Below, in pieces: positions 37,668-60,583 of a DNA stretch of 64,000 nt. The notes beneath the pieces are model-generated. The model made no database searches, had not been told where the DNA came from, and was given only the letters and a program-made list of their open reading frames with translations. The translations under genes were made by a program, and so were the position numbers. Source of the DNA: Acidimicrobiales bacterium (lineage in GTDB: Bacteria > Actinomycetota > Acidimicrobiia > Acidimicrobiales > SZUA-35). The stretch is from assembly GCA_050330635.1 (NCBI GenBank), contig JBHJNQ010000064.1, forward strand, positions 6,311 to 70,310, written 5' to 3'. Positions within the stretch are counted from its first letter, which is position 1. Every line of letters starts with the position of its first letter.

Positions 37668-37685
37668 CCGCGGTGGCTGACGGCC

Positions 37686-38166: not shown

Positions 38167-39810
38167 TCAGCGGAAGGCGGCGATGGCGCTGGCGGCGTCG
38201 AACAGGACACCGTCACCCAGGTTGGGCAGGACACCGAGGACGACGGTGGCGACGGCGGAGACGGCGATGGCCAGCAGGGCCGAGGGGGGAAGGGCGAGCC
38301 GGACGGGGGCCGCGACCGTCACCACCGCGGTCCCGCCGCCGCCCGCCGCCACGTCGGTGTCGGCGTCGTCGGGCACCTCGGACCCGACCCCGGCCCCGGC
38401 CGTCGCCGGCACCATGAACATGGCCACCACGATCCGCAGGTACAGGTAGGCGGCCACGACCGCCGACAGCATGGCCACCGCGGCGAGCACGTAGGACTCG
38501 TTGAGGGCGGCAGCGGCGATGACCCGGAACTTGGCGAAGAAGCCCGACGTGAACGGCACCCCGGCCTGGGAGAACAGCAGCACCGACATCAGCCCCGCCA
38601 GCAACGGGTGGCGCTGGGCCAGACCCCGGTAGGCCTCCAGGTCGTGATCGCCGTCGCCCCGACCACCGACGATCGAGATCACCCCGAACGTGCCGGCGAT
38701 CATGATCGTGTAGGCCAGGAGGTAGAAGAGGAAGGCCTCGCCGCCGAGGAGGCCGGAGTTCTCCGGCGTCGAGGCGGCGTGCACCGCCACCAGGATGAAG
38801 CCGGCGTGGGCGATCGACGAGTAGGCCATCATGCGCTTCACGTTGGTCTGGGCCACCGCCAGCACCGACCCCAGCAGGAGGGTGATCACGGCCAGCCCGG
38901 CGATGAGCGGACGCCAGTCCTCGAAGTAGGGGCCGAGCCCGACCCAGAAGACGCGGACCAGGCCGGCGAACCCCGCCACCTTCACCCCCGAGGCCATGAA
39001 CGCCACCACCGGCGTCGGCGCCCCCTCGTAGACATCGGGCGTCCACATGTGGAACGGCACCGCCGAGATCTTGAAGGCGAACCCGACCAACACGAGGGCC
39101 ATGCCCACCAGCAGGAGGGACGAGTCGACGGCGGGGTCGTAGCCGGCGCCGTTGGGCCCGGCGGCGGCGATGCCCCGCAGCGACGTCGACCCCGTCGCCC
39201 CGTACAGCATGGCCACGCCATAGAGGAACAGGGCCGACGACACGCTGCCGAGGAGGAAGTACTTGAAGCCCGCTTCCTGCGACTGGAGCCGACGGAGGTG
39301 GAGGGCGGCCATCACGTAGGCCGCGATCGACAGGATCTCGAGGCCGAGGAACGTGACGATCAGATCCTCACCCGAGGCGAGGAGCACCCCGCCGGAGGCC
39401 GACATCAGCAGCAGCACATACCACTCGGGACCATCGAGCTCCTCCCGCCGCAGGTACTCGTCGAGCAGCATGGCGGCGAAGAACACGGCCACGCAGATGA
39501 GGGCGGTGACGAACACGGTGAACCCGTCGATGGCGATGGCGTCGGCGATGACGAGCCGGGGGCCCTCGGTCCCCGTGTTGGCGTTGACCCGATTCCACAC
39601 GGGGATGAGGCTCAGCCCGGACACGAGGGCCGTGGCCCCGGTGAAGGCGGCCGGGAACCCCCCGCCCCGCAGGCGCGGAACCAACGACGTGATCAGCACC
39701 AGGAGCACACCACCGAGGGCGAGGACGACGAAGGGCAGGACGAGCGACCAGACGATCTCGGGCCCCACCACCGCCTCCTGGGCCAGCACACCCGTCATCG
39801 CGACCGTCAT
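38167..39810 (-). CDS. nuoN: Complex I subunit N (14-subunit cluster)
   Basis: EAGFKYF, FKISAVPFHMWTPDVYEGAP, KRMMAYSS. Confidence 0.95.
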   Translation of the reverse strand: MTVAMTGVLAQEAVVGPEIVWSLVLPFVVLALGGVLLVLITSLVPRLRGGGFPAAFTGATALVSGLSLIPVWNRVNANTGTEGPRLVIADAIAIDGFTVFVTALICVAVFFAAMLLDEYLRREELDGPEWYVLLLMSASGGVLLASGEDLIVTFLGLEILSIAAYVMAALHLRRLQSQEAGFKYFLLGSVSSALFLYGVAMLYGATGSTSLRGIAAAGPNGAGYDPAVDSSLLLVGMALVLVGFAFKISAVPFHMWTPDVYEGAPTPVVAFMASGVKVAGFAGLVRVFWVGLGPYFEDWRPLIAGLAVITLLLGSVLAVAQTNVKRMMAYSSIAHAGFILVAVHAASTPENSGLLGGEAFLFYLLAYTIMIAGTFGVISIVGGRGDGDHDLEAYRGLAQRHPLLAGLMSVLLFSQAGVPFTSGFFAKFRVIAAAALNESYVLAAVAMLSAVVAAYLYLRIVVAMFMVPATAGAGVGSEVPDDADTDVAAGGGGTAVVTVAAPVRLALPPSALLAIAVSAVATVVLGVLPNLGDGVLFDAASAIAAFR

Positions 39811-41462
39811 CGACCTGCCTCCTCGTCGGCGCCCTCGGCCCCCGACCCCTCGTGGGCGGCCTCGGCCGCCCCCACGATCTGTTCGACCCCCGGGACCGGC
39901 ACCTCCTCGGGCTCGGGTTCGACGAAGCCGTCGACCCGCTGCTCGACGTGGGCGATCAGCTCGTCGACGGCCGGCGAGATCCGGTCGAGGACCGGCTTGG
40001 GGTACACGCCGAGGAACACGATGAGGAAGAGCAGCGGGGCGATGCCGAGCAGCTCCGACAGCCGCAGGTCACGCATCGTGGCGTTGTCGCCCTGCGCCGG
40101 ACCGTGGAAGGCCCGTTGGTAGGCCCACAGCAGGTACAGGGCGGCGAGGATCACCCCGCTGACGGCGACCACGGCCCACCACCGGGCACTCGAGAAGGCG
40201 CCGAGCAGGATGAGGAACTCCCCGACGAAGCCGTTGAGGCCGGGCAGTCCGATGCTCGACAGCATGACCAGGGTGAAGACCCCGGCCATGACGGGAGCGG
40301 CCGACTGCAGGCCGCCCAGGGCGGCGATCTCCCGGGTGTGGCGACGCTCGTAGATCCACCCGACGAGGATGAACAGGGCACCGGTGGAGATCCCGTGGTT
40401 GACCATCTGGAGGACGGCGCCCTCGAGGCCCTGGGAGTTGAGGGCGAAGATGCCGAGCACGATGAAGCCCATGTGGGCCACCGAGGAGTAGGCCACCAGA
40501 CGCTTGAGGTCGCTCTGCATGGTGGCCACCGCCGCCCCGTAGACGATGCCGATCACACCGAGGGTCAGGAACAGCGGGGCGAGGTCGTCGACGACCGACG
40601 GGAACAGGTAGACACCGAAGCGGATGAACCCGTAGGTACCGAGCTTGAGCATGACACCGGCCAGGATGACGGAGCCGGCCGTCGGGGCTTCGGTGTGGGC
40701 GTCGGGGAGCCAGGTGTGGACCGGGAACAGTGGCACCTTGACGGCGAAGGCGGCGGCGAAGGACAGGAACACGAGGAGGGCCGCCGTGTCGCCGAGGGCC
40801 TGGTTCTCGGCCAGGAAGCGGACGTCGAACGACAGGATCCCAGTCTGGCGGGCGGTGAGGAACACCAGGCTGACGATGCCGACGAGCATCAGGGCCGAGG
40901 CGGCCATGGTGTAGAGGAAGAACTTGAGGGCGGCGTAGACCCGGTTGGCGTGGCCCCAACCCCCGATGAGGAAGTACATGGGAACGAGCACGACCTCGAA
41001 GAACAAGAAGAACAGCAGGAGATCGAGCGCCATGAACGCCCCCATCGCCCCACCCATGAGGAGCATCAGCCAGAGGTAGTACCGCTTGGGGTCGTGGTCG
41101 GGTTCGGAGGTGACGATGGCGATCGGGAAGAGGATGCCGGTCAGCACCACCAGGAACAGGGAGATCCCGTCGACCGCGAACAGCCAGCTGAGGCCGAGGC
41201 TGGCCACCCACTCCCGGCTGGTCACGAACTGGAAGCCACCGTCGGCGGCATCGAAGTCGGCCAGCAGGAACAGGGAGATGGCACCGGTGATCGCCGACCC
41301 GATCAGCGCCGCCAGCCGGGTGAAATCGCCCCGACTCGGGGGGAGCACGGCGATGACGGCGGCGGTGACAACCGGCACCAGGATCAGCGACGGTAGGAGG
41401 GGGAAGGTGGGGGCCGCACCCGCCGCCTCGGTGGCGACGAACGGAACCGCGCCGACGATCAT
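39807..41462 (-). CDS. nuoM: Complex I subunit M (14-subunit cluster)
   Basis: FFEVVLVPMYF, HTWLPDAHTEAP, MLKLGTYG, GFVGEF. ATG 41462 overlaps the nuoL stop. Confidence 0.95.
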   Translation of the reverse strand: MIVGAVPFVATEAAGAAPTFPLLPSLILVPVVTAAVIAVLPPSRGDFTRLAALIGSAITGAISLFLLADFDAADGGFQFVTSREWVASLGLSWLFAVDGISLFLVVLTGILFPIAIVTSEPDHDPKRYYLWLMLLMGGAMGAFMALDLLLFFLFFEVVLVPMYFLIGGWGHANRVYAALKFFLYTMAASALMLVGIVSLVFLTARQTGILSFDVRFLAENQALGDTAALLVFLSFAAAFAVKVPLFPVHTWLPDAHTEAPTAGSVILAGVMLKLGTYGFIRFGVYLFPSVVDDLAPLFLTLGVIGIVYGAAVATMQSDLKRLVAYSSVAHMGFIVLGIFALNSQGLEGAVLQMVNHGISTGALFILVGWIYERRHTREIAALGGLQSAAPVMAGVFTLVMLSSIGLPGLNGFVGEFLILLGAFSSARWWAVVAVSGVILAALYLLWAYQRAFHGPAQGDNATMRDLRLSELLGIAPLLFLIVFLGVYPKPVLDRISPAVDELIAHVEQRVDGFVEPEPEEVPVPGVEQIVGAAEAAHEGSGAEGADEEAGR

Positions 41463-43843
41463 GCGAACAACCTCCCCAGGAACCACACCATGACGAAGGC
41501 GGCACCGACGGCGAGGCCGAGGGCGTAGCTACGAACGAACCCCGGTTGGGTGACCCGGAGACCGCGACTGGCGGCCCCGATCCCGGTGGCGGTGCCCCGC
41601 ACCAGCCCATCGACCACCGTGCGGTCGAACCAGGCGACCAGATCGAACAGCTTCCGACCCGGGCCGCCGAAGAAGTCGGCGTAGCTCTCGTCGACGTACC
41701 AGGCGTGGGCCAGCGGTTCGAGTTCGATGGACTCGGGCTTGGGGGCTCGGCCCCGGAGGTAGACGGCGAAGGCGGTGACGATGGCGACGAGGGCGATGGC
41801 CGCCGCCACCATGGCCAGGAGCCACTTCGTCCCGGCCGACGCCGTCAGCTCGGCCTCGTGCCCGAACAGGGACGGCTCCAGCCAGTGCTCGAGGAACTTG
41901 ACCTCGCTGGCGAAGGGAAGGTTGAGCGCCCCGGCGCCGAGGGCGAACAGGGCCAGGACGACGAGGGGCAAGGTCATGGTCCACGGCGACTCGTGGGGTC
42001 GGTAGTGCTGGCGGTGCTGGTAGCTCTCGGGCAGGTGCTCGGTCAGGTCGCCGACATCGGTCGCCGGCGTACGGGCCGTGACCACCGCCGGGGGCAGGGG
42101 CAGCGGGGCGGAGCTGAGATCGTTGAGCCGGGCCGTCGCCACGTCGACGTCGGCTCCGGCCGCCACCACGCCGTCGGCGGTCGTGGCCGCACCCTCCCTG
42201 GCCTTGACGAGGGCCTCCTCCGCCTTGGGCACGGCCCTGGTCGCCTTCTCCAACGCCTTCACGAGCTTGTCGTGGCCGTCGGCGCCGACCGTAGAGGCGG
42301 TGACGGCGGCGCCCGACTCGCTCAGGGTGGCCTGGGCCTTGGCCAGGCCCTCCTGGCGCTTGACGATGTCGGCTTGGGCCTTCTCGGCCTGCTCCACCGC
42401 TGCGGTTCGGGCCTCTTGGGCCACGGTCACTCGGGCCTGGGCCGCCTCGACCCGTGCGGCCTGGGCGGCCGCGACCTCCGCCGCCGTCACATCGTAGAAG
42501 CGGGACCGGCCGAGGAAGGTGAGGATCACTTGGCGGGTCATGTAGAAGGCGGTGAGCAGGGCCGTCACGATGCCGACGGCCCACAACCCCTTGCCCCCGA
42601 TCTCGTCGGCGTTCCAGGCGTAGAGGAGGATCTCGTCCTTCGACCAGAAGCCACTGAAGGGGGGAACACCGGCGATGGCGAGCCAGCCGACGATGAAGGT
42701 CCCCGCCGTCAGGGGCATGTAACGGGCCAGGCCGCCCATGCGCCGCATGTCCTGCTCGTCGTGGAGCCCGTGGATGACCGACCCCGAACCGAGGAACAGG
42801 AGGGCCTTGAAGAAGGCATGGGTCACCATGTGGAAGATGGCGGCGACGTAGCCCCCCACGCCGACGGCGAGGAACAGGTAGCCGAGCTGCGACACCGTCG
42901 AGTAGGCCAGGACCCGCTTGATGTCGGTCTGGGCTATGGCGACGGTGGCGGCGAACAGGGCCGTCCCGGCGCCGACCCAGGCCACGAGGCCCCTGCTCCA
43001 GGTGTCGGCCTCGGCCAGGATGGGGTTGAGGCGGGTCAGCAGGAACACGCCGGAGGTCACCATCGTGGCGGCGTGAATGAGGGCCGACACGGGGGTCGGG
43101 CCGGCCATGGCGTCGGGCAGCCACACGAAGAGGGGCAGCTGGGCCGATTTCCCGGCCGCACCGAGCAGGAACAGCACCACGATCAGGGTGGCGGCGAAGG
43201 TTCCGATCTCCGGCGACCGGGTGAGTATGTCGGCGTAGCGGATCGAGCTCAGCTCGGTGAACACGAGGAACGTGGCCAACATGAACCCGAAGTCACCGAT
43301 GCGGTTGGTGACGAACGCCTTCTTGCCGGCGCTGGCGTTGCCCTCGTCGGTGAACCAGAACGAGATGAGGAGATAGGAGCAGGCCCCGACCCCCTCCCAG
43401 CCGAGGAAGGTCAGCAGCAGGTTGTCACCGAGAACCAGCACCAGCATGGAGGTGATGAACAGGTTGAGGTAGGTGAAGAACTTCGAGAAGTTCGGGTCCC
43501 CGTGCATGTACCCGATCGAGTACAGGTGGATGAGGGTGCCGACCCCCGTGATGAACAGGCTCATCGTGACCGACAACGGATCGATCAGCAGGCCGGCGTC
43601 GACCGAGAACGAACCGGACTCCACCCAGGTGAACAGCGTCTGGATGTGGAACCGCTCCTCGGCCGGCTCGCCGACCAGGCCGGCGTAGACGACGACGGTG
43701 GAAACGAAGGCGCCGGCGCTGGCCAGGGTGGCGAGCCAACCGGCGGCCGGCTCGCCCATCCGCCGACCGAAGGCGACGAGGAGTACGAACCCGGCCAGCG
43801 GAAAGGCGGGTATCAGCCAAGCGGCATCGAGCATGCCCATCAA
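41459..43843 (-). CDS. nuoL: Complex I subunit L (14-subunit cluster) with a large internal insertion
   Basis: [40 protein letters not shown]; 794 aa. Confidence 0.95.
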
Positions 43844-44145
43844 CCCTTCAACGACGTCAGATCATCGGCGGTGAGCGTCGGGCGGCGGCGCATGACGGCC
43901 ACCACGATCGACAGCCCGACGACCACCTCGGCCGCCGCCACCACCAGCACGAAGAACACCGCCGTCTGTCCCGCCAGGTCATCGAGGGCGCGGGAGAAGG
44001 CGACGAACGACAGGTTGACGGCGTTGAGCATCAGCTCGACGCACATGAACATGATGAGTGGATTGCGGCGGACCAGCAGACCGGTCAGGCCGATCGTGAA
44101 CAACAGGGCGCTCAGCACCAGGTACCACGTCTCGGTCAGCTCCAC
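43840..44145 (-). CDS. nuoK: Complex I subunit K (14-subunit cluster)
   Basis: [27 protein letters not shown]. Start at GTG 44145. Confidence 0.94.
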
Positions 44146-44176
44146 AGCGACCCTCCGTCCGGCGTTCCGTCGTCCA

Positions 44177-44758
44177 TCACGTCGCCGCCTGTCCCGGCTC
44201 GTCGACGGTGAGGTCCTCGGCACCCCGGTTGCGCACGAGCACCACGGCGCCGACGGTGGCGATGGTCAGGAGGAGGGCGGTGGCCTCGAAGGCCAGGACG
44301 TTACGGGTGAACAGATCGCGGGCCAACTGGTCGATGTCGGGCTGGGTGTCATCGATCGGTTGGGTGGCGGCCCGGGTACCGGTGAGGGCGACCGCACCCT
44401 CGTCGCCGCCCTTGCCGGACAAGAACAGGCCACCGGCGATCATGACCAGCACCAGGGCCCCGACCAGGATCCCGCCCACCCGTTGCCCGGCCAGGGGTTC
44501 CACGCTGAGATCCTCGGCCTGGTCGACACCGAGGAGCATGATCACGAACAGGAAGAGCACGACGATGGCGCCGGCGTAGACCACCACCTGCACCAGGGCG
44601 AGGAAGTGGGCACCCTGCACCACGAAGAGCACGGCGACCCCGAAGAGGGAGGCGATCAACGACAGGGCGGCCCGCACGGGGTTGGCGTTGAGGACCACGC
44701 CGAGGCCACCGCCGAGAACGATGGCCCCGGCGACGACGAAGACGATGACGTCGGCCAT
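44177..44758 (-). CDS. nuoJ: Complex I subunit J (14-subunit cluster)
   Basis: [37 protein letters not shown]. Confidence 0.94.
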
Positions 44759-45441
44759 CAGTGGTGTCCTCCGTGATCGTCATGCTCATCATGGTCATGA
44801 TCGTGATGGTCATGGCCGGCGGCGGTCGGCGGGGGCGCCGTCTGACCGGCCTCGGCGGCCCGGACGCCGTAGCCGAGCTCGCCCGACCACCCGATACGGC
44901 CCTCATAGGCCGCTCGCCCCGACGACGACGTGGCCCGCATCCACCCTGACGTGTGCTCGTCCTCGCCGGGGCGCCAGTCCTCCCATGGCAGCTGCCTGGG
45001 CTTGCCGTCTTCGCCGACGAGCAGCTCGTCCTTGGTGTAGATGGCATCGCTACGGTTCGTGAACGAGAACTCGAACAGCTTCGTCTCGGTGATGGCCTCG
45101 GTGGGGCAGGCCTCGACGCAGAGGTCGCAGTGGATGCACCGGAGATAGTTGATCTCGTACACGTAGCCGTAGCGCTCACCCGGCGAGAGGGGGGCGTCGG
45201 GCGGGTTGTCGGCCCCCCGGACGTAGATGCAGCGGGCAGGGCAGACACCGGCGCACAACTCGCAGCCGATACACTTCTCCATCCCGTCCTCGTAGCGGTT
45301 GAGCACGTGGCGGCCGTGGACCCGCTCGGGCTTGGGGGCCTTGATGTCGCTCGTACCACCCCGGCCGGCCATGTACTGCTTGGTGGTGACGCCCTCGGCC
45401 CACTTCTTGAGCGTGACGCCGAAACCCTCGAGGTAGCCCAT
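44758..45441 (-). CDS. nuoI: Complex I subunit I (14-subunit cluster) with His/Asp-rich tail
   Basis: CIGCELCAGVCP and CIHCDLCVEACP. Start at ATG 45441. Confidence 0.95.
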   Translation of the reverse strand: MGYLEGFGVTLKKWAEGVTTKQYMAGRGGTSDIKAPKPERVHGRHVLNRYEDGMEKCIGCELCAGVCPARCIYVRGADNPPDAPLSPGERYGYVYEINYLRCIHCDLCVEACPTEAITETKLFEFSFTNRSDAIYTKDELLVGEDGKPRQLPWEDWRPGEDEHTSGWMRATSSSGRAAYEGRIGWSGELGYGVRAAEAGQTAPPPTAAGHDHHDHDHDEHDDHGGHH

Positions 45442-46712
45442 CAGTTGACCTCCGGTGAGGGGTGCTCGACCAGGCCCCGCTCGGCCAGCCGGTCGTGGCG
45501 GGCCGTCCGCACGGCGAGCCCGAGGACGCCGGCGGCGGCGACCCCGATCACCAGTCCGATGGCCACGACCGCCACCACATCGCCGACCGGGGTCGCACCC
45601 GGCTCGGCGTCGAACCATCCGAATCCGCCGTCCTGGGCCACCCGGATGCCGCCCAGGATCAGGAGCCAACCGAGGGCGAGGGGGATCAGGAGCTTCCACC
45701 CGAGGTCCATCAGCTGGTCGTAGCGGAGCCGGGGCAGGGTGGCCCGGAACCACACGAAGGTGAAGAGGAACACCAGCAACTTGCCGAAGAACCACACGAA
45801 GCCCCAGAGCCAACCGGGCAGGATGCCGAGGTTCGGCCCGGCCGGGCCGCCGAAGAACAACGTGACGATGATGGCCGACATGGTGACCGTGTTCATGTAC
45901 TCGGCCAGGTAAAAGAGGGCAAAGCGGATCGAGGAGTACTCGGTGTGGAACCCGCCGACCAGCTCCTGCTCGGCCTCCACCAGGTCGAACGGGGGCCGGT
46001 TGAGCTCGGCCGTGCCGGCGATGAGGAAGATCACGAACGGCACGAACCCGGTGACGATCACGTTCCAGTTGGGGACGATGCCACCGAAGCCGGCCCCGGC
46101 CTGGACCTGCACGATCTCGTTGGTGCTGAGCGTGCCGGAGACGAGCAGCACCGACGCCAACGACAGGCCGAGGGCGGCCTCGTAGGAGATGGCCTGGGCC
46201 GAGGCCCGGACCGAACCGAGGAGCGGGTACTTCGAGCCGGACGACCAACCGGCCAGCATGATGCCGTAGACACCGATCGAGCTCATGGCCAGGAAGAACA
46301 GGATCCCGACGGGGACGTCGGCCACCTGGAGGAAGGTCTCGCGGCCGAACACGGTGACCGACCCGTTGCCACCGTCACCGAAATCGCCGGCGATCGGCAC
46401 CAGGACGAACGTGAGGAACGCCGGTATCAGCGCCAGGTAGGGGGCGATCTGGAAGACGAACCGGTCGGACCGGCTGGGGATCAGATCTTCCTTGAAGAAC
46501 AGCTTGATCCCGTCGGCCAGCGTCTGCAGCAGACCGAACGGGCCCGCCACGGTGGGGCCGAGACGGTTCTGGAGGCGGCCGACCACCTTGCGCTCGAACC
46601 AGACCATCAGCATGACGGCCACCAGGAGCAGGGCGAAGGCGATACCGGCCTTGGCGATGGCGAGGATGACATCGCCACCGTCGACACCGTCGGCCAGGTA
46701 CGGATCCCCCAT
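45441..46712 (-). CDS. nuoH: Complex I subunit H (14-subunit cluster)
   Basis: ERKVVGRLQNRLGP, ADGIKLFFKED, NRPPFDL.EAEQEL, PRLRYDQL. Confidence 0.95.
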   Translation of the reverse strand: MGDPYLADGVDGGDVILAIAKAGIAFALLLVAVMLMVWFERKVVGRLQNRLGPTVAGPFGLLQTLADGIKLFFKEDLIPSRSDRFVFQIAPYLALIPAFLTFVLVPIAGDFGDGGNGSVTVFGRETFLQVADVPVGILFFLAMSSIGVYGIMLAGWSSGSKYPLLGSVRASAQAISYEAALGLSLASVLLVSGTLSTNEIVQVQAGAGFGGIVPNWNVIVTGFVPFVIFLIAGTAELNRPPFDLVEAEQELVGGFHTEYSSIRFALFYLAEYMNTVTMSAIIVTLFFGGPAGPNLGILPGWLWGFVWFFGKLLVFLFTFVWFRATLPRLRYDQLMDLGWKLLIPLALGWLLILGGIRVAQDGGFGWFDAEPGATPVGDVVAVVAIGLVIGVAAAGVLGLAVRTARHDRLAERGLVEHPSPEVN

Positions 46713-50713: not shown

Positions 50714-51331
50714 CTACGACTCCTCTGCGGGTTGGCGGCTGGCGAACCAGGGCGGGGTGCCGGCGACCTCGGGGGACTCGATCCCGGCCATCCGCTCGGG
50801 GGGGATGTGCTGTCGGACCCGGCTGAGGGTGCCGTGGGCCGGGATGTCGGGTCGGACCCCGTCGCGTAGGTCGCTGATCAGCTGGGAGAACGAGCCGGGC
50901 TCGACCCGGTACTCGTAGCGGTAGTTCACCTGGAGGCACGGGGCTTCGGTGCAGGCGGCGATGCACTCGACGTCCTCGAGGGTGAACAACCCGTCGTCGG
51001 TCGTGCCGCCGGGTCGGACCCCGAGCTCACGCTCGGCCTCGTGGAGGAGCTCCTCGCCACCGTTGAGCTGGCAGCTGATGTTGGTGCAGATGTTGACGAG
51101 GTACGTGCCGACCGGCTCCCGCTTGAACATCTCGTAGAACGAACAGGTCCCCAGGACCTCGGCCGGTGTCACGCCCACCAGCTCGGCCAGGTGCTCCATG
51201 GCGTCGTCGGCCACGTAGCCCTCCTGTTCCTGGGCCAGGTGGAGGAGGGGGATGAGGGCCGACTTGGGTCGGGGGTAGCGGGAGATGATCTCCCGGGCCA
51301 CCGCCTCGTTGTCGGGTGTCAAGCGCGCCAT
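50714..51331 (-). CDS. nuoE: Complex I subunit E
   Basis: SALIPLLH, CTNISC...ECIAAC..AP (2Fe-2S). Confidence 0.95.
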   Translation of the reverse strand: MARLTPDNEAVAREIISRYPRPKSALIPLLHLAQEQEGYVADDAMEHLAELVGVTPAEVLGTCSFYEMFKREPVGTYLVNICTNISCQLNGGEELLHEAERELGVRPGGTTDDGLFTLEDVECIAACTEAPCLQVNYRYEYRVEPGSFSQLISDLRDGVRPDIPAHGTLSRVRQHIPPERMAGIESPEVAGTPPWFASRQPAEES

Positions 51332-51332
51332 A

Positions 51333-52664: not shown

Positions 52665-53230
52665 GGGAGATCCGCCTTCGGGTTGCGTTGCCAGGGTGCC
52701 TTGAACTGGACGGGGATGGCACCGACGGCGTAGTCCTTGCGGAGGGGATGCCCCTCCCACGTCTCCGGCATCAGGATTCGTGACTGGTCGGGGTGACCGG
52801 CGAAGGTGATCCCGAACAGGTCGAACACCTCGCGCTCGTGGAAGTCCGTGCCGGGGTAGATGGCGTACAGGGAGTCGATGGTGGGATCGTCCGCCGGCAC
52901 CTGGACCCGGGCTCGGAGACGCTCGGCCCGCTGATGGGACACGAACGAGGCGACCACCTCGAACCGCTCCGGGGTCACCCCCGGCGGCACTTCCCGTAGG
53001 CCGCCGAGGCTCAGGTAGTCGACGGCGGTGAGGTCGACGCACATGTTCCATCCGTCGGCCAGTAGCTCGACGGCGAGGGCCCGCCAGGCGTCGCGGTCGG
53101 GGTGGATGACCCGCTGGCCCCGCGACCAGGTGACGGGGAACCCGTAGGCCTCCTCGACGGTGAGGCCGGTCTCGGTGGACTCGCTGTCGTCGGTCTCGGC
53201 GTCGGTGTCGGCGGCCCCGGTGTCGCTCAC
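52661..53230 (-). CDS. nuoC: Complex I subunit C (14-subunit cluster)
   Basis: [30 protein letters not shown]. Confidence 0.94.
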
Positions 53231-53817
53231 CGGCCGTCGCCGATCGTGGTCAGCACGGGGGCGCCCTGCCCGTCACGCTGCTCGATCGTGATCTCGGCCC
53301 CGCCCCCCGTGGCCGAGCGGCGTCGCAGCAGCTCACCCGACTCGATGTTGGCCCGCAGGGTGAGGATGGCGTGGAGGAGGGTCTCCGGGCCCGGTGGGCA
53401 CCCGGGGGCGTAGACGTCGACCGGGACGACCTGGTCGACGCCCTGCACGATGGCGTAGTTGTTGAACATCCCACCGCTGGAGGCGCACACCCCCATCGAG
53501 ATGACCCACTTCGGCTCCATCATCTGGTCGTAGATCTGCCGCAGGACCGGAGCCATCTTCTGGCTGACCCGCCCGGCCACGATCATCACGTCGGCCTGGC
53601 GGGGCGAGGCCCGGAAGACCTCCATGCCGAGGCGGGCGATGTCGTAGTGGGAGCCGCCGGTGGCCATCATCTCGATGGCGCAGCACGCCAGACCGAACGA
53701 TGCCGGCCACGACGAGCGGGCCCGCGACCACGACACGAGCTTCTCCAGCGGGGCGGTGACGACATTGTGGTCGAGTCCCTCGAAGCCGTGCTCGTTGACG
53801 TTGCTGACCAGTCCCAT
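53227..53817 (-). CDS. nuoB: Complex I subunit B (14-subunit cluster)
   Basis: [32 protein letters not shown]. Confidence 0.95.
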
Positions 53818-54395
53818 CAGACGACCACCTTCTCCTTCTCCGGCTCCGGGGAGGGTCGGGACCCCTCGTCGGGATCGTCGTCGGCGTGGCGTTCGGCGGC
53901 GGCCGCCGCCTCCCGTTCCGCCTCGATCTCGCCGATCCCGTAGGCGATCTGGTAGCGCCCCTCGTTGCCCACTCGACGCACGGTGGAGGTCGACGTCCTC
54001 TCGCCCGCCCGCAGTGGGTCCTGGCGGCGTGACACCTGGAGGGGTCCCCACTCGAGGGCGCCCTTGGAGATGAGATAGACGAACGACTCGAACACGAGGG
54101 CCGAGAAGACCAGGACCGCCACGAGGCCGAAGACCCCGAGGGCGGCGTGGTTGACCGCCCACGGGTAGAGGAACACGATCTCGATATCGAAGATGACGAA
54201 CAGCATCGCCACCAGATAGAAGCGAACCGGGAACCGCTCGGGGAGGTCCCGACCCGGGGTGATGCCGCACTCGTAGGGTGCCAGCTTCTCCAGGGTCGGT
54301 CTCCTCGGGGCCAGCAGCCTCGATGCTATCAAGCTCAATGCTGCGAACACGAATGCCAGCACGAGCAGGGCCAGAACCGGTAGGTACTGCGCCAA
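53817..54395 (-). CDS. nuoA: Complex I subunit A (14-subunit cluster) with C-terminal extension
   Basis: [28 protein letters not shown], then about 70 charged residues. Confidence 0.93.
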
Positions 54396-54434
54396 GGTGT
54401 CCTCCTCTCCTGGTGGCCGGTGTGGATTGCCGCC

Positions 54435-55484
54435 TCAGGCGGCGGTCCGGATCTCTGACTCCCGTTGATCTCTCACGTGCATGTTCCAGGCGACGGCGGC
54501 GAACACCAACCCGTTGAAGATGGTGAACATCGCCGGCGTGAACCGCCGGCCGCTGAACAGGGCGGGGAACGGACCGCCGCGGTCACGTTCCATGATCACA
54601 CTCACCAGCGGGGCATCGGGGTCGACCGTGGCCACCGGCGGGGGCTGACCGGGCAACGTCGGCTGTTCGATGGCGGCCTGGACCTGGATGACGATCAGCT
54701 CCCGGCCGTAGAAGGGATGGAGAAACGTCTCGTTGAAGAAGTGACCCACCCGCTCGAAGACGTTGGCATCCTCGACCAGCACCGGCTTGCCATCGATCGT
54801 GAAGGCCCCGAACTGGCGGGTCACGTACTCACCGGCGGCGAACCGGCCCCCCTCGATGAGGAAGGCATCGACCGAGGCCTGGGCCTCTCCCCGGATCGGA
54901 TCGGAGCTCTCCAGGTACCGCCAGTCGCCGAGGTCGAGCTGGCGGGAGGCGACGAGCGCCGCCTCCTGGGCCACGTCCTGGTCGGCTATCTCGTCGACGG
55001 TGGCGGCGTCGGACAACAACCCGGCCACCGACTCCCGGGCGTCGGCGTCGGGGTAACGGTCGAGCACGGCTTCGGGGTCGAACGGCGCCTCGCCCAGCCC
55101 CCCGGCCGGCACGCCGTCGCCGCTGTCGGACTGGAAGAGCTGAGCCGCCTCCTCCACCTCGGAGAAGAGCAGGCCGTCGTCGGTGTCGCCGGCGTCGTCG
55201 AAGTTGATCTCCACCAGCGACCATGTCGGGGCGGCGCCGTTCCAACCGATGCCGTAGATCGTCCAGATGATCCCCATGAGGAACATCCAGCCGGTGAGGC
55301 CGGCGACGGCGATGAGAAAGCCCTGCCGGCTACCCGTGTTGGTGGCGACGATGAGGTAGGTGCTGCCCATGAGGACGACCACGCCGACCAGCACGCTGAG
55401 CAGGCCCCGGAAGAAGGGATCGAAGCCGATTCCATCGATGAAGGCCAGCTGGCTTGCGACGACCTGGTTGACCAGTAGCAGCAT
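54435..55484 (-). CDS. Hypothetical membrane protein between the cytochrome bc genes and nuoA
   Basis: Two N-terminal TM helices, acidic soluble domain, one C-terminal TM; ATG 55484 overlaps the upstream stop. Confidence 0.75.
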
Positions 55485-57040
55485 CACAGGCCTCGCTCGT
55501 AGTCGACGACCGCTTGAATGTAGTCGGGTGGCAGCGACCCGCCGAAGCCCGGCATCATGCCGGCGGCACTGAGCCCGCCCCGACCGTAGCCGGCACCGGC
55601 CTCGGCACCGGTGTAGATGAAGTCGTAGTGGGCCGTGCTGGTGCGGCCGGGCATCTCGACGATCGTGCACTGACCGACCAGCCGGCCGTCGGCCAGCTCG
55701 AACACCTCACCCGGCACGTCGGCTGCGTCGAGTCCGGGCGGGTCCCTGAAGTTGCCGCTGTCGTCCTGCTCGAGCTCGTAGCCGACGGCGAAGGGGTAGG
55801 CGGGTCCGGACTCGGGCTGCCACAGCTGCGACACGTACTCGCAGCTGGCCAGGTCGCCGGCCACGCTCTCGTCGTCCGGCACGGTGACCCCGGTCGGGTC
55901 GTCGAGGATCAGGTAGGGCTCGCCGTCGTCGGTGACGGGGTTGCCGCTTGCATTGAGGCGGACCTTCGAACCGTTGGCCGCCTCGATGTAGAACCCCTCG
56001 TCGTCGTCGAGGCCCTCGGGGGGCAACCACGAGCCGTCGGCCGCCAACCAGGTGTCGTCGGGGAAGCGCTCCAGGACGGAGCCACCGCACAGGTTGAAGC
56101 CGATGCCGGACGGATCGCCGCCCCCGCAGCCGGCGACGCCCTCGTCGAGCACGTTCGGTACGGTGTCGATGCCGAGTGACCAACCGGCGGTGTGGCACCG
56201 GGCGCACGACAGCGAGCCACCGCGGTAGCCGCTGTAGAGACCGAGGTTGAACACGGCTTCACCGATGGTGTCGAACTCGCCGGCGGCGATCGAACGTTCG
56301 ACCTCCTCGCGGACCTCGGCCTCGACCTCGGCGGCGGCGGCCGCCGCCTCCAGGCTCGCCTCGTCGCCCGGGTCGCCGCCGCCGGCGGCGGCGATCTCGA
56401 TGGGGTCGAGGCTCTGCTGCTGCAAGGTCCGCAGATAGATGATGACCTCATCGACCTGTTGGGTCGTGAGGGGTCCGCCACCGGGCGTGCCCCAGGCCGC
56501 CATGGGCGAGCCGGGACGGCCGAAGTTGAGCACGTAGCGGACCTCGTCCTCGCTATAGCGCAGGAGCACGTCGTCGAGCGCCGGGGCGTACCAGTTGGCG
56601 TTGGCCAGGAACTGGCCGTCGGCATCCTGGAGGACGTAGGGGGCGGCACCGCCGGCGCCCCCGGCGGCGTGGCAGTTCACGCACTGGGCACCGCCCACGT
56701 AGGTGCCTTCACCCCGCGACTCGGCCTGCCGGTTGTAGGCGGCGACGGCGCCGACCTGACGGCCGGGTTCGGCCAGCCAGTAGAAGGGCAGGACGATGGC
56801 GAGGAGGCCCAGCATGACCAGGGCGAACGTGAGGGACTTGTCGAGCTTGGTGCCCTCCAGCTCCTCGTCGCTCAGGTACGGTTTGCGGTTGGGGGCGAGC
56901 TCCACCTCCGAGCCCAGCTCGGAGCGGGCGACCCGCATGTTTCGGATCCACAGGGCGACGAAGGCGACGAGAACGAGGGCAGCGACGGTGAGGCCGATGG
57001 CTCTGAAGTCAACGGCCAGGATGGCGGTGGCCGCGACCAT
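55484..57040 (-). CDS. Membrane-anchored diheme c-type cytochrome of the Rieske/cytochrome b complex
   Basis: Two TM helices, CVNCH and CARCH, candidate distal Met ligands in SPMAAW and GMMPGF. Confidence 0.88.
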   Translation of the reverse strand: MVAATAILAVDFRAIGLTVAALVLVAFVALWIRNMRVARSELGSEVELAPNRKPYLSDEELEGTKLDKSLTFALVMLGLLAIVLPFYWLAEPGRQVGAVAAYNRQAESRGEGTYVGGAQCVNCHAAGGAGGAAPYVLQDADGQFLANANWYAPALDDVLLRYSEDEVRYVLNFGRPGSPMAAWGTPGGGPLTTQQVDEVIIYLRTLQQQSLDPIEIAAAGGGDPGDEASLEAAAAAAEVEAEVREEVERSIAAGEFDTIGEAVFNLGLYSGYRGGSLSCARCHTAGWSLGIDTVPNVLDEGVAGCGGGDPSGIGFNLCGGSVLERFPDDTWLAADGSWLPPEGLDDDEGFYIEAANGSKVRLNASGNPVTDDGEPYLILDDPTGVTVPDDESVAGDLASCEYVSQLWQPESGPAYPFAVGYELEQDDSGNFRDPPGLDAADVPGEVFELADGRLVGQCTIVEMPGRTSTAHYDFIYTGAEAGAGYGRGGLSAAGMMPGFGGSLPPDYIQAVVDYERGL

Positions 57041-57909
57041 CAGTGGCCACCACCGCTGCTCAGGCAGTTCGGGCCCTCGGCCTCCTGGCCGGTGGTGTTC
57101 GTACCGATCGGGGGTCCGGCGATGATCACGCCGGTGTTGACGATCAGCTCATTGGCGGCCGAGACCTCCATGGGGAACCGGTCCATACCGCGGGGGGCCG
57201 GACCGCCCTTCTTCTCGCCGACCTGGTTGTACTGCGAACCGTGGCACGGGCACTCGAACCACTGAGAGGTGACGCACTCCGGCACCCGGCACCCGAGGTG
57301 GGGGCAGGTCTGGTAGAGGGCGACCACGCCGGCCCGCAGCCCCTGCTCGACCTGGGGGTAGAAGGCGTAGGTAGCCTCGGCCTTGGCCACCGCCGAAGCC
57401 GGGTACTCGGTCACCCACATCCTCCCCTCCGGCACGTAGAAGAAGCCCTGGCCGTTCCGGATGGCAGCCTGGATGTCGGGCAACCGGCCGACGTTGACCC
57501 GGGCCCCGAAGCCCTCGCTCGGCGGCGGCCACAGGAAGGCGAGGGAGGCGGCGCCGAAGGCCGTCAGCCCGAAGGCGAAGCTGGTGACGATGCTCCGGTT
57601 GAGGAACTGACGGCGGGTGACTCCCAGCGTCTCGGGGTCCGGGGGGACGTAGATCGCCGGAGCGGTGTCGCCCGTGGCCACCAGCGTCCCGGTGCGGCCG
57701 CCGCGGGCGGACGCCTCCAGGGCCCGGCCGGTAGCGGGAGCCGTCTGGCCCTCGTCGCTTGCGGCGAGCTCGGCCCGGCGGTCGCGCTTGACCGTCTCGC
57801 CCGACAGCTGCCCGATGGCGGTCGTCGTGTCGTTGCGGCGGAACGACACGGCAACGACGACCAACCCGAGCAGCGCCAGGATGATGATGCCGATGATGAG
57901 AGGCGTCAT
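57040..57909 (-). CDS. Rieske iron-sulfur protein
   Basis: Internal Tat motif TRRQFL; CPHLGC and CPCHGSQY boxes. Confidence 0.95.
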   Translation of the reverse strand: MTPLIIGIIILALLGLVVVAVSFRRNDTTTAIGQLSGETVKRDRRAELAASDEGQTAPATGRALEASARGGRTGTLVATGDTAPAIYVPPDPETLGVTRRQFLNRSIVTSFAFGLTAFGAASLAFLWPPPSEGFGARVNVGRLPDIQAAIRNGQGFFYVPEGRMWVTEYPASAVAKAEATYAFYPQVEQGLRAGVVALYQTCPHLGCRVPECVTSQWFECPCHGSQYNQVGEKKGGPAPRGMDRFPMEVSAANELIVNTGVIIAGPPIGTNTTGQEAEGPNCLSSGGGH

Positions 57910-57925
57910 GTGATGCTCCTGCTCT

Positions 57926-58729
57926 CTAGAGGTCGAAGAAGATGCCCTCGACCCACGGGAACACGAAGTTGAACCCGGGGCCGCGGAAGAACGAACCGAT
58001 CATGACGAGCACAGCCCAGAACATGAGGAACACCGTGAAGACCGCCACTGCGAACTTGCGGCGCTCCGGCTGGATGTTGGGGTTGCGGTCGATGTAGGGG
58101 GCGATCATGAGGATGAACAGACCCATGCCGGGGATGGTCACCCCGGCCACCATGGGGTGGAACATCGTCAGTAGCTCCTGCAAGCCGAGGAAGTACCACG
58201 GGGCCTTCGACGGGTTGGGGGTGGCGTTGACGTCGGCCAGCCGCAGCAGCGGGGCGTTGACGAAGATGGAGAAGATCGTGAGGAAGGCCGTCAGGAACAG
58301 GGCCGAGCCGAACTCGACGATGATCAGGTGGGGCCACGTGTGGACCTTGTCGTGAGGCTTCGACTTGATGTCCTGGATCGAGCCCGACTTGACGACGGTC
58401 AGCAGCCGCTGGGTGTGACCGGCCGGACCGGTCATCGTCGGCAGCGGGCCGGCGGTGGTGGCGGCCGCCACCGCGGTCGAGGCCGCAGGGGCGACCGCGG
58501 TGGCCGTGGCCCCGCCGCCCGACTCCTCCGCCTCGCGTTGCTTGGCCGACTTCGACCGCTGCAACAGATGCTCGGGGATCTTGCTGGCCGCGCCCTCACC
58601 ACCGCCGGCAGCGGGCGCCGGGACGTCGGCGGCCGTCGGGGCGTCGGAGGCCGCACCCTCGGCGGGGCCCTCGGCCTTCTTGCGGGCCTCCTGGGCCCGC
58701 TTGCGGAGATGTTCGGGGATCTCAGTCAT
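57926..58729 (-). CDS. Cytochrome b6-f/bc subunit IV-like protein
   Basis: TWPHL, ATPNPSKAPWYFLGLQEL (Qo motif region), PYIDRNP...RR. Confidence 0.88.
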   Translation of the reverse strand: MTEIPEHLRKRAQEARKKAEGPAEGAASDAPTAADVPAPAAGGGEGAASKIPEHLLQRSKSAKQREAEESGGGATATAVAPAASTAVAAATTAGPLPTMTGPAGHTQRLLTVVKSGSIQDIKSKPHDKVHTWPHLIIVEFGSALFLTAFLTIFSIFVNAPLLRLADVNATPNPSKAPWYFLGLQELLTMFHPMVAGVTIPGMGLFILMIAPYIDRNPNIQPERRKFAVAVFTVFLMFWAVLVMIGSFFRGPGFNFVFPWVEGIFFDL

Positions 58730-58751
58730 ACGGTCTCTCTTCCTCCGGGGC

Positions 58752-59543
58752 CTAGAGCGGCCCGGAGATGCCGCCGTCCTTGCGGACTCGCCAGAAGTGG
58801 ATGGCCATGAAGATCACGGTCACGAAGGGTAAGAGCAGCACGTGGAGCACGTACCAGCGCAACAGGGTGTCGGTCCCGATGACCTGACCCCCGAGCAGCA
58901 CGAACTTGACCTGCTCACCGAACACCGGGGTGAAGCCCATCATGTTGGTCCCCACCGTCACCGCCCACAGGGCGAGCTGGTCCCAGGGGAGCAGGTAACC
59001 GGTGAACGACAGCAGCAGGGTGAACTGGAGGAGGTTCACGCCGATCACCCAGTTGAACTCGCGGGGTGCCTTGTAGGCCCCGTGGTAGAAGACCCGGGCC
59101 ATGTGGAGGAAGACCGAGATGACCATCAGGTGGGCGCCCCACCGGTGCAGGTTGCGGACGAGCAGGCCGAAGGCGATCTGGGTCTGGAGGGTCTCGATGT
59201 CGTTCCAGGCGGCGGCCGCCGTCGGCCGGTAGAAGAACATCAGGAAGATGCCGGTGATGGTCAGCAGGATGAAGAGGAAGAAGCTGAGCCCACCGAGACA
59301 CAGGGTGTAGCTGACCTTCACCGCGTGCCGTTTGACCTTCACCGGGTGGAGGTGGTAGAGAACGCTGTTCATGATCACGTACGACCGGTTGCGAGGGCTG
59401 TCGGTGTAGCCCTTGCGGAACACCGAACCCGGCCGGAAGATCGAGTTCCAGGCCTGGGAATCCTGGATCGTCTCCGCCATCTGGGAGGCGCTGGCGCTCA
59501 TCCGCTCGGAGAGCGACGGCTTGTCCTGGATCGACTTTGCCAT
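58752..59543 (-). CDS. Cytochrome b6-like (split cytochrome b, N-terminal part)
   Basis: TLCLGG, TGIFL, four heme His (LHRW...LHM, LHV...IHF), TGYLLPWDQ, GISGPL C-terminus. Confidence 0.93.
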   Translation of the reverse strand: MAKSIQDKPSLSERMSASASQMAETIQDSQAWNSIFRPGSVFRKGYTDSPRNRSYVIMNSVLYHLHPVKVKRHAVKVSYTLCLGGLSFFLFILLTITGIFLMFFYRPTAAAAWNDIETLQTQIAFGLLVRNLHRWGAHLMVISVFLHMARVFYHGAYKAPREFNWVIGVNLLQFTLLLSFTGYLLPWDQLALWAVTVGTNMMGFTPVFGEQVKFVLLGGQVIGTDTLLRWYVLHVLLLPFVTVIFMAIHFWRVRKDGGISGPL

Positions 59544-59672
59544 GGATGTCCTTGATCTCGTACGGGTTCTCGTGCGGTTGCCGGGCGCCGTCGGCGCCGG
59601 GCGGTGAGATTCGGTCGGGTGCGATTCGGTCGAGTTCGGGTGAGGAGCGTAGAGGGTGCGGCCCGCTTTGGC

Positions 59673-60089
59673 TCAGGCCAGGCGCATCCCGTAGCCGTAG
59701 CCGTAGGACGTGGTGCGCTGGTGGGAGTCGCCGGTGGCGGGCGGTGTGTCGATCTTGCCGAGGATGATCACCCCGGTCGGGCAGCGGTCGACGCAGAGGG
59801 CGCAGCGGGTGCACACGTCGTCGTCGATGGTGAAGATGAAGGCGTCGTCGGGGTCGTCGCCGGGTTTGACGACACCATAGGCCTCCTGGACGGCGTCGAC
59901 CGTCTGCATGTGGATGCACTTCCACGGGCAGATGTCGACGCAGCCCTCGCAGGCGATGCACTCCGACTGGTCGATGTGGATGAACTGCTTCGGCTTGACG
60001 GCACGGCCGAGGTAGTCGGCGTCGACCTCCATCAGGAGGTAGTCGTCTCGGAATTCCGGGAGTGGTGGGTTTGCGTCGGTGGTGACCAT
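59673..60089 (-). CDS. 2[4Fe-4S] ferredoxin
   Basis: CIACEGCVDICP and CTRCALCVDRCP. Confidence 0.92.
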   Translation of the reverse strand: MVTTDANPPLPEFRDDYLLMEVDADYLGRAVKPKQFIHIDQSECIACEGCVDICPWKCIHMQTVDAVQEAYGVVKPGDDPDDAFIFTIDDDVCTRCALCVDRCPTGVIILGKIDTPPATGDSHQRTTSYGYGYGMRLA

Positions 60090-60107
60090 GGTGTGCTCCG
60101 GTACCGA

Positions 60108-60554
60108 TCAGCCCTGCTTGACCAGGGGCCGACCGTAGGTGCTGCGGGGGATCTGACCGCGCTGCTCGGCCGCCTGACCCCGATTCTGCCAAACGAGCCA
60201 GAGGACGATCTGAGCACCGAAGAACACGAGGTAGAAGACGCCGGCGATCGAGTCGGAGACCACCCGGTACGTGATGTCGAAGGGTAGCCAGCCGCCCTGG
60301 CTGGCGGGCTGGACGATGTTGCCGGGGCCGTAGACGAACCGGTCGGCCCGCCAGTTCAGCTCGTTCTCGGCCAGGGTCAGCCACTGATGGGGAATCACGC
60401 CGTAGGCGAGGAAGGCGAGAAAGAAGACGTAGACGGCGCCGACCATGGCCTCACCCCACGTAACCGGCGTGCCGACGGGACGACGGCGGGCGTACCACAA
60501 CACACCCAACACCATCAGAACCGCAGCGATGATCGAAGTGATGAGGGCGACCAC
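60108..60554 (-). CDS. Hypothetical 3-TM membrane protein, first gene of the bc-nuo operon
   Basis: Three hydrophobic segments, TWGEA and IPHQW motifs, STYGRPL tail. Start placed at GTG 60554. Confidence 0.72.
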   Translation of the reverse strand: MVALITSIIAAVLMVLGVLWYARRRPVGTPVTWGEAMVGAVYVFFLAFLAYGVIPHQWLTLAENELNWRADRFVYGPGNIVQPASQGGWLPFDITYRVVSDSIAGVFYLVFFGAQIVLWLVWQNRGQAAEQRGQIPRSTYGRPLVKQG

Positions 60555-60583
60555 GAAGAACTCTCCAGTTCGGGCGGGATGAC

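Follow-up and report, generated by a model that had tools for sequence, protein, structure and literature searches.

The 64,000-nucleotide stretch analyzed here, hereafter the window (positions 6,311 to 70,310 of contig JBHJNQ010000064.1, assembly GCA_050330635.1, from a member of the Acidimicrobiales), carries an array of 21 minus-strand genes (60554 to 38167) that joins a Rieske/cytochrome b module, referred to as the b6c module, to a complete set of complex I genes, nuoA-N. Our analyses indicate that the array is probably one operon, controlled by the NADH sensor Rex, for two separate and consecutive respiratory enzymes. The first enzyme would be formed by the seven-gene b6c module, comprising the membrane protein X1, a ferredoxin, cytochrome b6, subunit IV, a Rieske protein, a dihaem cytochrome c apparently anchored at its N terminus and a second membrane protein, X2, and the second would be the 14-subunit NADH:quinone oxidoreductase NuoA-N, which would reduce the same quinone pool. 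A rise in NADH would release Rex from its operator, so that the quinone-reducing and the quinol-oxidizing enzyme would be produced together, at a fixed ratio, from one long mRNA, and both would probably be inserted into the same patch of membrane.

The 21 co-oriented and overlapping or closely spaced genes that a first-pass annotation of the sequence had reported were all recovered with the identities it had given them, in the order X1-ferredoxin-b6-subunit IV-Rieske-cytochrome c-X2-nuoA-N, based on open reading frames (ORFs) and Pfam and NCBIfam matches across 38167-60554 (Table 1). The source genome, of ~5.45 Mb and ~70% G+C, is G000 in our numbering and the contig C64. Stop and start codons overlap at 12 of the 20 gene junctions, and the gaps at the remaining eight are 18, 129, 22, 16, 39, 1, 88 and 31 bp, making 129 bp the maximum; the 39-bp gap that had been described between X2 and nuoA is among them. 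Pfam identified 13 subunits of complex I, a Fer4 protein occupies the position of NuoI, and the gene order is canonical. NuoL has an Ala/Gln/Glu-rich insertion of ~150 aa, as read in its translation. The array is set off from its surroundings by 230 bp followed by a divergent ORF 5' of X1, and by a convergent nucleotidyltransferase/HepT pair 3' of nuoN.

Table 1. Features of the b6c-nuo array and its upstream operator, in window coordinates
Feature	Position	Strand	Matches and remarks
Rex operator (ROP)-like palindrome TTGTGAAGCTTTGCACAA	60585..60602	.	31 bp 5' of X1 start codon; 1 mismatch to consensus
X1, 148-aa membrane protein, GTG start	60108..60554	-	family without annotation; three predicted helices
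Ferredoxin-like protein, 138 aa, two CxxCxxCxxxCP motifs (2x[4Fe-4S])	59673..60089	-	Pfam Fer4 families
Cytochrome b6, four-helix N-terminal half of split cytochrome b	58752..59543	-	PF00033 E 2.6e-45, PF13631; NCBIfam cytb_ExtP 301.9 bits (cut-off 290)
Subunit IV, C-terminal part of split cytochrome b	57926..58729	-	PF00032; NCBIfam memb_ExtQ below cut-off
Rieske [2Fe-2S] protein	57040..57909	-	PF00355; motifs read from translation
Dihaem cytochrome c, 518 aa	55484..57040	-	PF13442 and PF00034, first domain; start overlaps Rieske stop codon
X2, 349-aa membrane protein	54435..55484	-	family without annotation; start overlaps cytochrome c stop codon
X2-nuoA spacer, 39 bp, with ribosome-binding site AGGAGAGGAGGA	54396..54434	-	junction sequence read
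nuoA, 192 aa, TTG start	53817..54395	-	PF00507; NCBIfam NuoA below cut-off
nuoB	53227..53817	-	PF01058; start overlaps nuoA stop
nuoC	52661..53230	-	PF00329; 4-bp overlap
nuoD	51333..52664	-	PF00346 E 1.3e-115; 4-bp overlap
nuoE	50714..51331	-	PF01257
nuoF, 88-bp gap before gene	49183..50625	-	PF01512 and PF10589
nuoG	46712..49186	-	PF13510, PF10588, PF22117, PF00384
nuoH	45441..46712	-	PF00146 E 2.5e-118
nuoI	44758..45441	-	Fer4 families; place between nuoH and nuoJ
nuoJ	44177..44758	-	PF00499
nuoK	43840..44145	-	PF00420
nuoL	41459..43840	-	PF00361, PF00662, PF01010
nuoM	39807..41462	-	PF00361
nuoN, last gene of array	38167..39810	-	PF00361

The palindrome upstream of X1 differs at a single position from the Rex operator consensus TTGTGAA-N4-TTCACAA. 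The window has no second match when up to three mismatches are allowed, and the ~5.45-Mb genome has none at up to one mismatch, where 0.027 matches were expected from base composition. The genome also has a rex gene, identified by the NCBIfam equivalog NF003992 (283.7 bits, cut-off 226) on the same contig (G000:C64), ~9.3 kb upstream of X1. In Streptomyces avermitilis, Rex represses nuoA-N via a TTGTGAA-N4-TTCACAA-type site (PMC5355995). From the site and the regulator gene we infer that Rex binds the predicted operator and controls the array. ROP-like sites with up to two mismatches were found within 300 bp 5' of X1 in 43 of 77 related loci, and only four others occur in the 1.35 Mb of those loci. 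In the loci examined from other classes of the phylum, the operator stands before a reductase-like gene and nuoA (with no mismatches in L091, and also in L092 and L093). In these other-class loci the operator would have its place on the nuo side, and in the Acidimicrobiales before X1.

The order of the genes is strongly conserved. All genome and locus counts in this study come from related genomes, and hence describe a conserved neighborhood and not independent events. In 80 of 80 related Acidimicrobiales loci, every gene detected from X1 to nuoD is colinear and co-directional; 69 of these loci extend to nuoA, the remaining 11 stop at a contig edge, and 66 of the 80 carry all 11 genes X1-nuoD. 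The X2-nuoA gap in the 69 relatives has a median of 9 bp. We also determined the placement of b6 relative to nuoD in 151 genomes of the class, comprising 36 of the same order, 80 of other orders and 35 of one family with ~1-Mb genomes (f28; Table 2). All 28 genomes of the order with b6 and nuoD on one contig have them in tandem. A sample of 41 genomes of relatives, judged by eye, likewise had the tandem pattern. The linkage of the two clusters, whose conservation in relatives the first-pass annotation had left to a synteny survey, is therefore borne out within the order.

Table 2. Placement of b6 relative to nuoD in 151 genomes of the class (number of genomes, with distances)
Group	Tandem	Divergent	Convergent	Different contigs	No b6 orthologue	No nuoD match
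Own order, n=36	28 (5.1-6.3 kb)	0	0	2	5	1
Other orders, n=80	29 (6.3-22 kb)	21 (4.2-24 kb)	0	23	6	1
~1-Mb family, n=35	0	0	4 (>700 kb apart)	29	1	1

Beyond the class, 96 genomes with a b6 orthologue included 41 with divergent and seven with tandem placement (all 4.4-36 kb), 35 with the genes on different contigs and 13 with no nuoD match at the threshold of 1e-130; 10 unpublished genomes were left out of this tally. The distance between b6 and nuoD is at most 36 kb in all 126 genomes with both on the same contig (28+50+48), the ~1-Mb family excepted. The genes between the two clusters were identified in other-class loci. L090/L091 have genes for a CcdA-like protein, ctaC (with a fused cytochrome c), ctaD, ctaE, CtaG, a cupredoxin and a thioredoxin-like protein, and CtaA/CtaB; L092 has a ResC-like gene, an AsnC-type regulator and a UbiE/MenG methyltransferase; and L093 has rex. 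A geranylgeranyl-reductase-like gene stands directly before nuoA in all three other-class loci examined (L090/L091, L092 and L093). Because genes for cytochrome c biogenesis, menaquinone, Rex and, in one locus, the caa3 oxidase lie between the clusters in other classes, the array of the Acidimicrobiales appears to be a compaction of an older respiratory gene island. The head-to-tail b6c-nuo fusion accordingly looks like a derived state across the Acidimicrobiales, the oxidase genes having moved elsewhere.

Type of the cytochrome b complex

Judged by its sequence, the b6c module is the sole Rieske/cytochrome b complex of the organism and is of the b6 type, not the actinobacterial QcrCAB type. 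Its cytochrome b6 gave the one cytochrome b match in the genome, and its nearest solved relatives are chloroplast and cyanobacterial b6 (E 1e-46), with actinobacterial QcrB at only ~1e-21. The cytochrome b is split into separate b6 and subunit IV genes with 22 bp between them. C82 of b6, the candidate for the cysteine that binds haem ci/cn covalently, aligns with residue 35 (Cys) of 6rqf_I and 1q90_B, and H133, H147, H234 and H249 align with the four His of the spinach b6 chain 6rqf_I, which we take to be the ligands of the two b haems. C82 and the four His are invariant in 47 homologues (alignment A4). The profiles of the actinobacterial bcc complex scored far below their cut-offs (bc1_QcrB_actin, 118.5 bits with a cut-off of 500; bc1_QcrA_actin, 21.7 bits with a cut-off of 275), the gene is split, and the b6c genes are not adjacent to cta in the source genome.

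Both parts of the split cytochrome b are extended at their N termini. In b6 there are ~55 additional residues, which are conserved, and subunit IV begins with an Ala/Pro-rich extension of ~130 aa (residues 1-130) that has two conserved copies of IPEHL(R/L)xR(A/S) and a conserved HTQRLLTVVKSGSIQD segment (alignment A5). The quinol-oxidation site (Qo) motif of subunit IV is APWY, in the context SKAPWYFLGLQELL, with A176, W178 and Y179 invariant and P177 nearly so (alignment A5). The Rieske protein has an N-terminal helix, an internal RRQFL twin-arginine motif and a second helix, and its translation contains the CxH and CxxH cluster boxes as CPHLGC and CPCHGSQY. The Ser and Tyr at the positions found in CPCHGSQY are taken to predict a high-potential centre (PMC3509893). 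As an observation in its own right, a high-potential Rieske centre would be unexpected if, as we assume, the substrate were menaquinol. The cytochrome c has the haem motifs CVNCH and CARCH by reading, with only the first domain detected by Pfam. Inspection of its translation by eye shows two hydrophobic stretches at the N terminus, and the C-terminal region is acidic.

The haem-copper oxidase genes of the organism are on another contig, C2, which has both genomic COX1 matches, and the b6c genes are on C64. The oxidase subunit II (CtaC) encoded on C2 has a fused cytochrome c domain, and a Caa3_CtaG factor is encoded there too. The b6c complex presumably oxidizes menaquinol and passes electrons to this caa3-type oxidase. 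The first-pass annotation had contrasted the array with the qcr genes of model Actinobacteria, which are linked to cta. This contrast is upheld in the source genome, where cta is on another contig, but does not extend to the phylum as a whole, since the same module adjoins a caa3 cluster in another class.

The b6 type is known at the level of a survey, since Kao and Hunte (2014, PMC4122944) already list a split cytochrome b in deep-branching Actinobacteria, including the Acidimicrobidae strain Ilumatobacter coccineum. Further cytochrome b genes, or the absence of a b6 orthologue, were noted among the relatives. Five of the 36 genomes of the order (G068, G086, G157, G173 and G181) have no b6 orthologue and keep nuoD; their only cytochrome b match is distant (E 1e-24 to 1e-27) and may be of QcrB type. 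Many relatives, the source genome not among them, have a second b6 paralogue of ~50-56% identity (e.g., G020:C5:2917133-2917822 and G001:C6:11050-11700), often with a further distant cytochrome b match ~6 kb away.

X1, X2 and the ferredoxin

X1 and X2 had no match in Pfam or NCBIfam. The predicted structure of X1 has three helices (predicted local distance difference test (pLDDT) 88.5), and 40 aligned sequences share the motifs TWGEAM, YGVVPHQWL, WQNRG and, at the C terminus, S-x-YGRPLVK (alignment A2). X2 is modeled with two N-terminal helices, a soluble alpha/beta domain and one C-terminal helix (pLDDT 89.9), and G27, G40, N49, G51, R53 and W74 are invariant in 36 sequences (alignment A1). 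A profile search of X2 against solved structures gave nothing below E 0.3, Foldseek searches of the PDB gave nothing at E <=0.001 for X1 or X2, and the best match of X2 in the VIA-align wide search (Z 7.7) covered long helices only. In the ESM Atlas, all 30 of the closest clusters were unannotated and from Actinomycetota, for X1 and for X2. Homology of X1 or X2 to an accessory subunit of the bcc-aa3 supercomplex was considered and dropped, as no search favored it; 9qef_A (Z 7.2, 60 residues) was just one of a large number of helical matches with tied scores.

The distribution of these two genes bears on how the array is to be understood. Among the 80 related loci, X1 is present in 77, X2 in 72 and the ferredoxin in all 80. 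In L082, where nuo is >700 kb away or on another contig, X1 and X2 are still with the b6c genes, and they are likewise retained in L083 and L084, where nuo is divergent and X2 lies at the end most distant from nuo. In another class, the ORF after the cytochrome c gene resembles the N-terminal hairpin of X2 (hhalign probability 97.7%, E 1.6e-12, 77 columns), and the ORF preceding the ferredoxin gene resembles X1 (hhalign probability 96.7%, E 3.7e-10, 109 columns). Because a divergent or unlinked nuo cluster does not part X1 and X2 from the b6c genes, both are counted as part of that module, and a role as connectors to complex I finds no support in where they lie.

Such a role had been suggested in the first-pass annotation, which envisaged a complex I-bc supercomplex with the two membrane proteins joining its halves, and the gene distribution above, together with the relatives of X1 and X2 that flank b6c in other classes, speaks against it. 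If complex I and the b6c complex did form a physical supercomplex with X1 and X2 as connecting subunits, the operon would serve its assembly, and several features would suit that reading. Genes of one operon often encode interacting proteins, the linkage is tight, conserved and co-directional in the order, the junctions are of the translational-coupling type, the gap between X2 and nuoA is at most 9 bp in 35 of 69 loci, and the cta oxidase genes are not adjacent in the source genome. In addition, NuoA has a C-terminal extension: among the 69 Acidimicrobiales loci with a tblastn match to nuoA, 66 gave alignments that reach ~residue 147 or further. However, tblastn did not find this extension in loci L083-L093, so that it tracks the order and not the gene arrangement, being absent even from the tandem loci L088 and L089. 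Moreover, 8-15 kb of other genes separate the module, with its flanking X1 and X2 relatives, from nuo in other classes, the caa3 oxidase genes are nearer to it than nuo in another class, and enzymes that share a substrate pool can be gene neighbors without physical contact. A complex I-b6c supercomplex is neither supported nor excluded, and we consider its assembly through X1 and X2 very unlikely.

The ferredoxin is read as cytoplasmic because no signal sequence or twin-arginine translocation (Tat) motif was seen on inspection of its sequence by eye. All eight of its Cys are invariant in 47 sequences (alignment A3), and its gene is directly 5' of b6 in 80 of 80 related loci, with the same placement in other classes. 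In L083 (G134:C55, ~12605-13954), X1 and b6 are ~120 bp apart with no ferredoxin gene in between, and the ferredoxin is therefore not universal in the module. A three-chain prediction of the ferredoxin with b6 and subunit IV scored 0.48, 0.30 and 0.48 in its runs, with 0.00 for the best of three controls, and the score dropped to 0.00 in the control in which subunit IV was replaced. The runs had a contact agreement of at least 34% and a partner pLDDT of at least 62. The mark set for such scores was reached by 116 of 157 solved complexes and two of 215 mismatched pairs, but scores of up to 0.60 that pass it came from only 18 of the 157 solved complexes and from both of the passing mismatches, and this calibration is only approximate for three chains with custom alignments. 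The prediction hints that the ferredoxin may dock on b6 and subunit IV.

Potentially, the b6c complex is not a plain quinol:cytochrome c reductase, and the [4Fe-4S] protein exchanges electrons with haem ci and the quinone-reduction site, so that low-potential electrons would enter the menaquinone pool or the complex would run in reverse. The linkage to complex I would in that case reflect shared balancing of NADH, ferredoxin and quinone, an interpretation that overlaps with the others and does not exclude them. The constant place of the gene before b6, the invariance of its eight Cys and of the haem-ci cysteine, and the low docking score set against that of the best control are consistent with this exchange, as are the N-terminal extensions of b6 and subunit IV, which presumably are cytoplasmic by analogy with b6f topology. 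A second nuo cluster in the window, with 11 subunits and without NuoEFG, also fits. Input from ferredoxin at haem cn has been proposed for b6f (PMC5600118), as has a reversed Q cycle for an APWY-type complex of Geobacter (PMC4122944). On the other side, the module has the only cytochrome b in a genome with a caa3 oxidase and must therefore have an ordinary forward role, X1 and b6 lie too close together in L083 to leave space for a ferredoxin gene, support for docking is weak, and the clade is one without biochemistry. We therefore regard electron exchange with the ferredoxin as quite unlikely. An extended version would be an undescribed seven-subunit b6c enzyme of deep-branching Actinomycetota. 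Its ferredoxin would bind at the n-side, by way of the N-terminal extensions that b6 and subunit IV carry, and pass electrons to and from haem ci. Acidimicrobiales would make this enzyme and complex I from a single mRNA under Rex control, as a unit leading from NADH to cytochrome c that would be functional and perhaps also physical. This, too, we hold to be quite improbable.

Transcription of the array

The position of the ROP at the head of the array and the median X2-nuoA spacer of 9 bp lead us to argue, short of proof, that the array is read from one Rex-controlled promoter. The first-pass annotation had proposed a single transcription unit of ~22 kb, and in agreement with it a consensus scan of 53500-62000 revealed no independent promoter or terminator before nuoA. 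The sigma-70 part of the scan, which is of little value at 70% G+C, gave no promoter-like matches in this interval; the terminator part, which covers U-tract terminators only, gave two matches with 2.7 expected by chance, neither of them in an intergenic gap of the array, including that between X2 and nuoA. The RNA folds of the three largest gaps of the array were no stabler than those of shuffled sequences (z -0.28, -0.40 for X2-nuoA and +1.92 for nuoE-nuoF).

The b6c genes and nuoA-N could instead belong to two or more transcription units that merely abut, as a relic, with a nuo promoter within or just after X2. Long operons commonly contain internal promoters, and the two clusters are separate, and often divergent, in most other lineages, where the Rex site is on the nuo side. 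The X2-nuoA gap measures 157-368 bp in four of the 69 relatives, and the stop codon of X2 is spanned by a 6-bp GC hairpin without a U tract. However, the 39-bp spacer in the source genome contains nothing but a ribosome-binding site, the spacer of the relatives is typically shorter still, no operator-like site was found at the X2-nuoA junction in any of the 77 related loci, the junction has no promoter- or terminator-like match, and the one strong Rex site in the genome has been relocated to the front of the array. Separate transcription units therefore seem unlikely to us.

Several observations weigh against the single Rex-controlled operon for two enzymes that we favor. Apart from the relatedness of the genomes counted, an operator with up to two mismatches is missing 5' of X1 in 34 of the 77 related loci, and operator-like sites with two mismatches are found at 17909 in L030, 18248 in L053 and 17927 in L058. 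In L053 and L058 the site is less than 20 bp away from where the nuoE match starts, and in L030 it is ~230 bp downstream of that start. The ferredoxin-b6 and X2-nuoA spacers contain GC-rich hairpins that lack U tracts, and terminators of high-G+C bacteria can be without U tracts. Promoters inside coding sequence, for example within X2, are also possible. Co-transcription from X1 to nuoN as one unit, and the place where transcription starts, are suggested by the gaps, the overlaps and the position of the operator. As for the enzymes themselves, X1, X2 and the ferredoxin may serve the b6c enzyme as accessory subunits or in its assembly, an assignment derived from synteny and one weak complex prediction. 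In addition, no enzyme of the APWY clade is characterized, according to Kao and Hunte (PMC4122944), and the direction of electron flow through the b6c complex is consequently an assumption.

Related systems, significance and neighboring genes

The array has likenesses to, and differences from, several known systems. The Firmicute b6c complex (Bacillus QcrABC) and its caa3 oxidase share with the present system a split cytochrome b with the haem-ci cysteine, a presumed role in menaquinol oxidation, an oxidase subunit II with fused cytochrome c and a Caa3_CtaG factor. In contrast to QcrABC, subunit IV is unfused here and there is a separate 518-aa dihaem cytochrome c, the genes are in the order b6, subunit IV, Rieske, cytochrome c, APWY stands at the Qo site, and the cluster includes a ferredoxin and two unannotated membrane proteins and has nuoA-N fused on. 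Cyanobacterial and chloroplast b6f has the same cytochrome b split site, with Cys35 and the four His aligning, but no genes for cytochrome f or PetG/L/M/N were identified in the array. The array instead encodes a dihaem cytochrome c, its b6 and subunit IV are lengthened considerably at their N termini, and its context is respiratory, not photosynthetic. The actinobacterial bcc complex (QcrCAB) is from the same phylum, and likewise has a dihaem cytochrome c and a Rieske protein whose twin-arginine motif is preceded by an additional N-terminal helix; the oxidase genes beside the module in another class of the phylum are a further likeness. It differs from the array, in which cytochrome b is split and b6-type, cytochrome c is apparently anchored at the N terminus, and cta is not adjacent.

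The APWY clade (Kao and Hunte 2014, PMC4122944) has a split cytochrome b and the APWY motif, as does the array, which is placed in it here by the motif alone; the ferredoxin, X1, X2 and the nuo linkage are not mentioned in the accessible part of that account. In Streptomyces, a Rex-repressed nuoA-N operon has the same operator consensus before the complex I genes, with a rex gene present, whereas the predicted operator here precedes seven b6c genes placed before nuoA, and Rex would control both enzymes. Lastly, respirasomes with complexes I and III, in mitochondria and Paracoccus, combine the same two consecutive activities. Those respirasomes are physical assemblies established by biochemistry and cryo-EM, whereas the array presents gene linkage only.

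Complexes I and III of the respiratory chain usually have separate genetic loci and separate regulation. To place both behind one NADH sensor would make the array a compact natural case of redox-controlled expression at a fixed ratio, and the b6c-nuo linkage points to shared regulation, not to a new physical assembly of the two enzymes. The analysis also defines a seven-gene b6c module that is conserved across deep branches of the Actinomycetota and belongs to a clade in which no enzyme is characterized, according to PMC4122944. We found no description of a b6c-nuo operon or of the seven-gene module in Acidimicrobiia in the literature searched, to which the supplementary tables of PMC4122944, possibly bearing on gene context, did not belong; the accessible text of that paper does not discuss gene context. 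Since there are cultured carriers, namely Salinilacustrithrix flava, which has the locus (L049), and Ilumatobacter, named in PMC4122944, the operon, its control by Rex and the subunit composition are directly testable.

In the 35 genomes of family f28, of ~1 Mb, and in L082 (G045:C1:974000-993000), nuo is unlinked and the G+C content of the locus is 36%. The module there contains X1, ferredoxin, b6, subunit IV, Rieske, cytochrome c and the start of X2. Complex III is stated to be missing in the streamlined marine Ca. Actinomarinales (PMC7771536). If f28 corresponds to that group, the b6c module would have been overlooked there, and the reported absence of complex III in streamlined marine relatives suggests that the module may escape routine annotation.

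Two further gene groups of the window adjoin or resemble parts of the array. A second nuo-like cluster of 11 subunits lies at 11412-21250 on the minus strand, with Pfam matches of the N-, M-, L-, K-, H- and C-type, and NuoE, F and G were not seen among its ORFs when these were scanned. Its NuoD paralogue, at ~19536-20372, has 41% identity; in many relatives, too, such a paralogue is found at a distance of ~17-32 kb from the main nuoD. A nuo paralogue without EFG has been described for Ca. Actinomarinales (PMC7771536). At 37242-38102 on the plus strand, converging on the nuoN end of the array, a PF18765 nucleotidyltransferase and a PF01934 HepT-like RNase are encoded together, in an arrangement resembling a toxin-antitoxin module.

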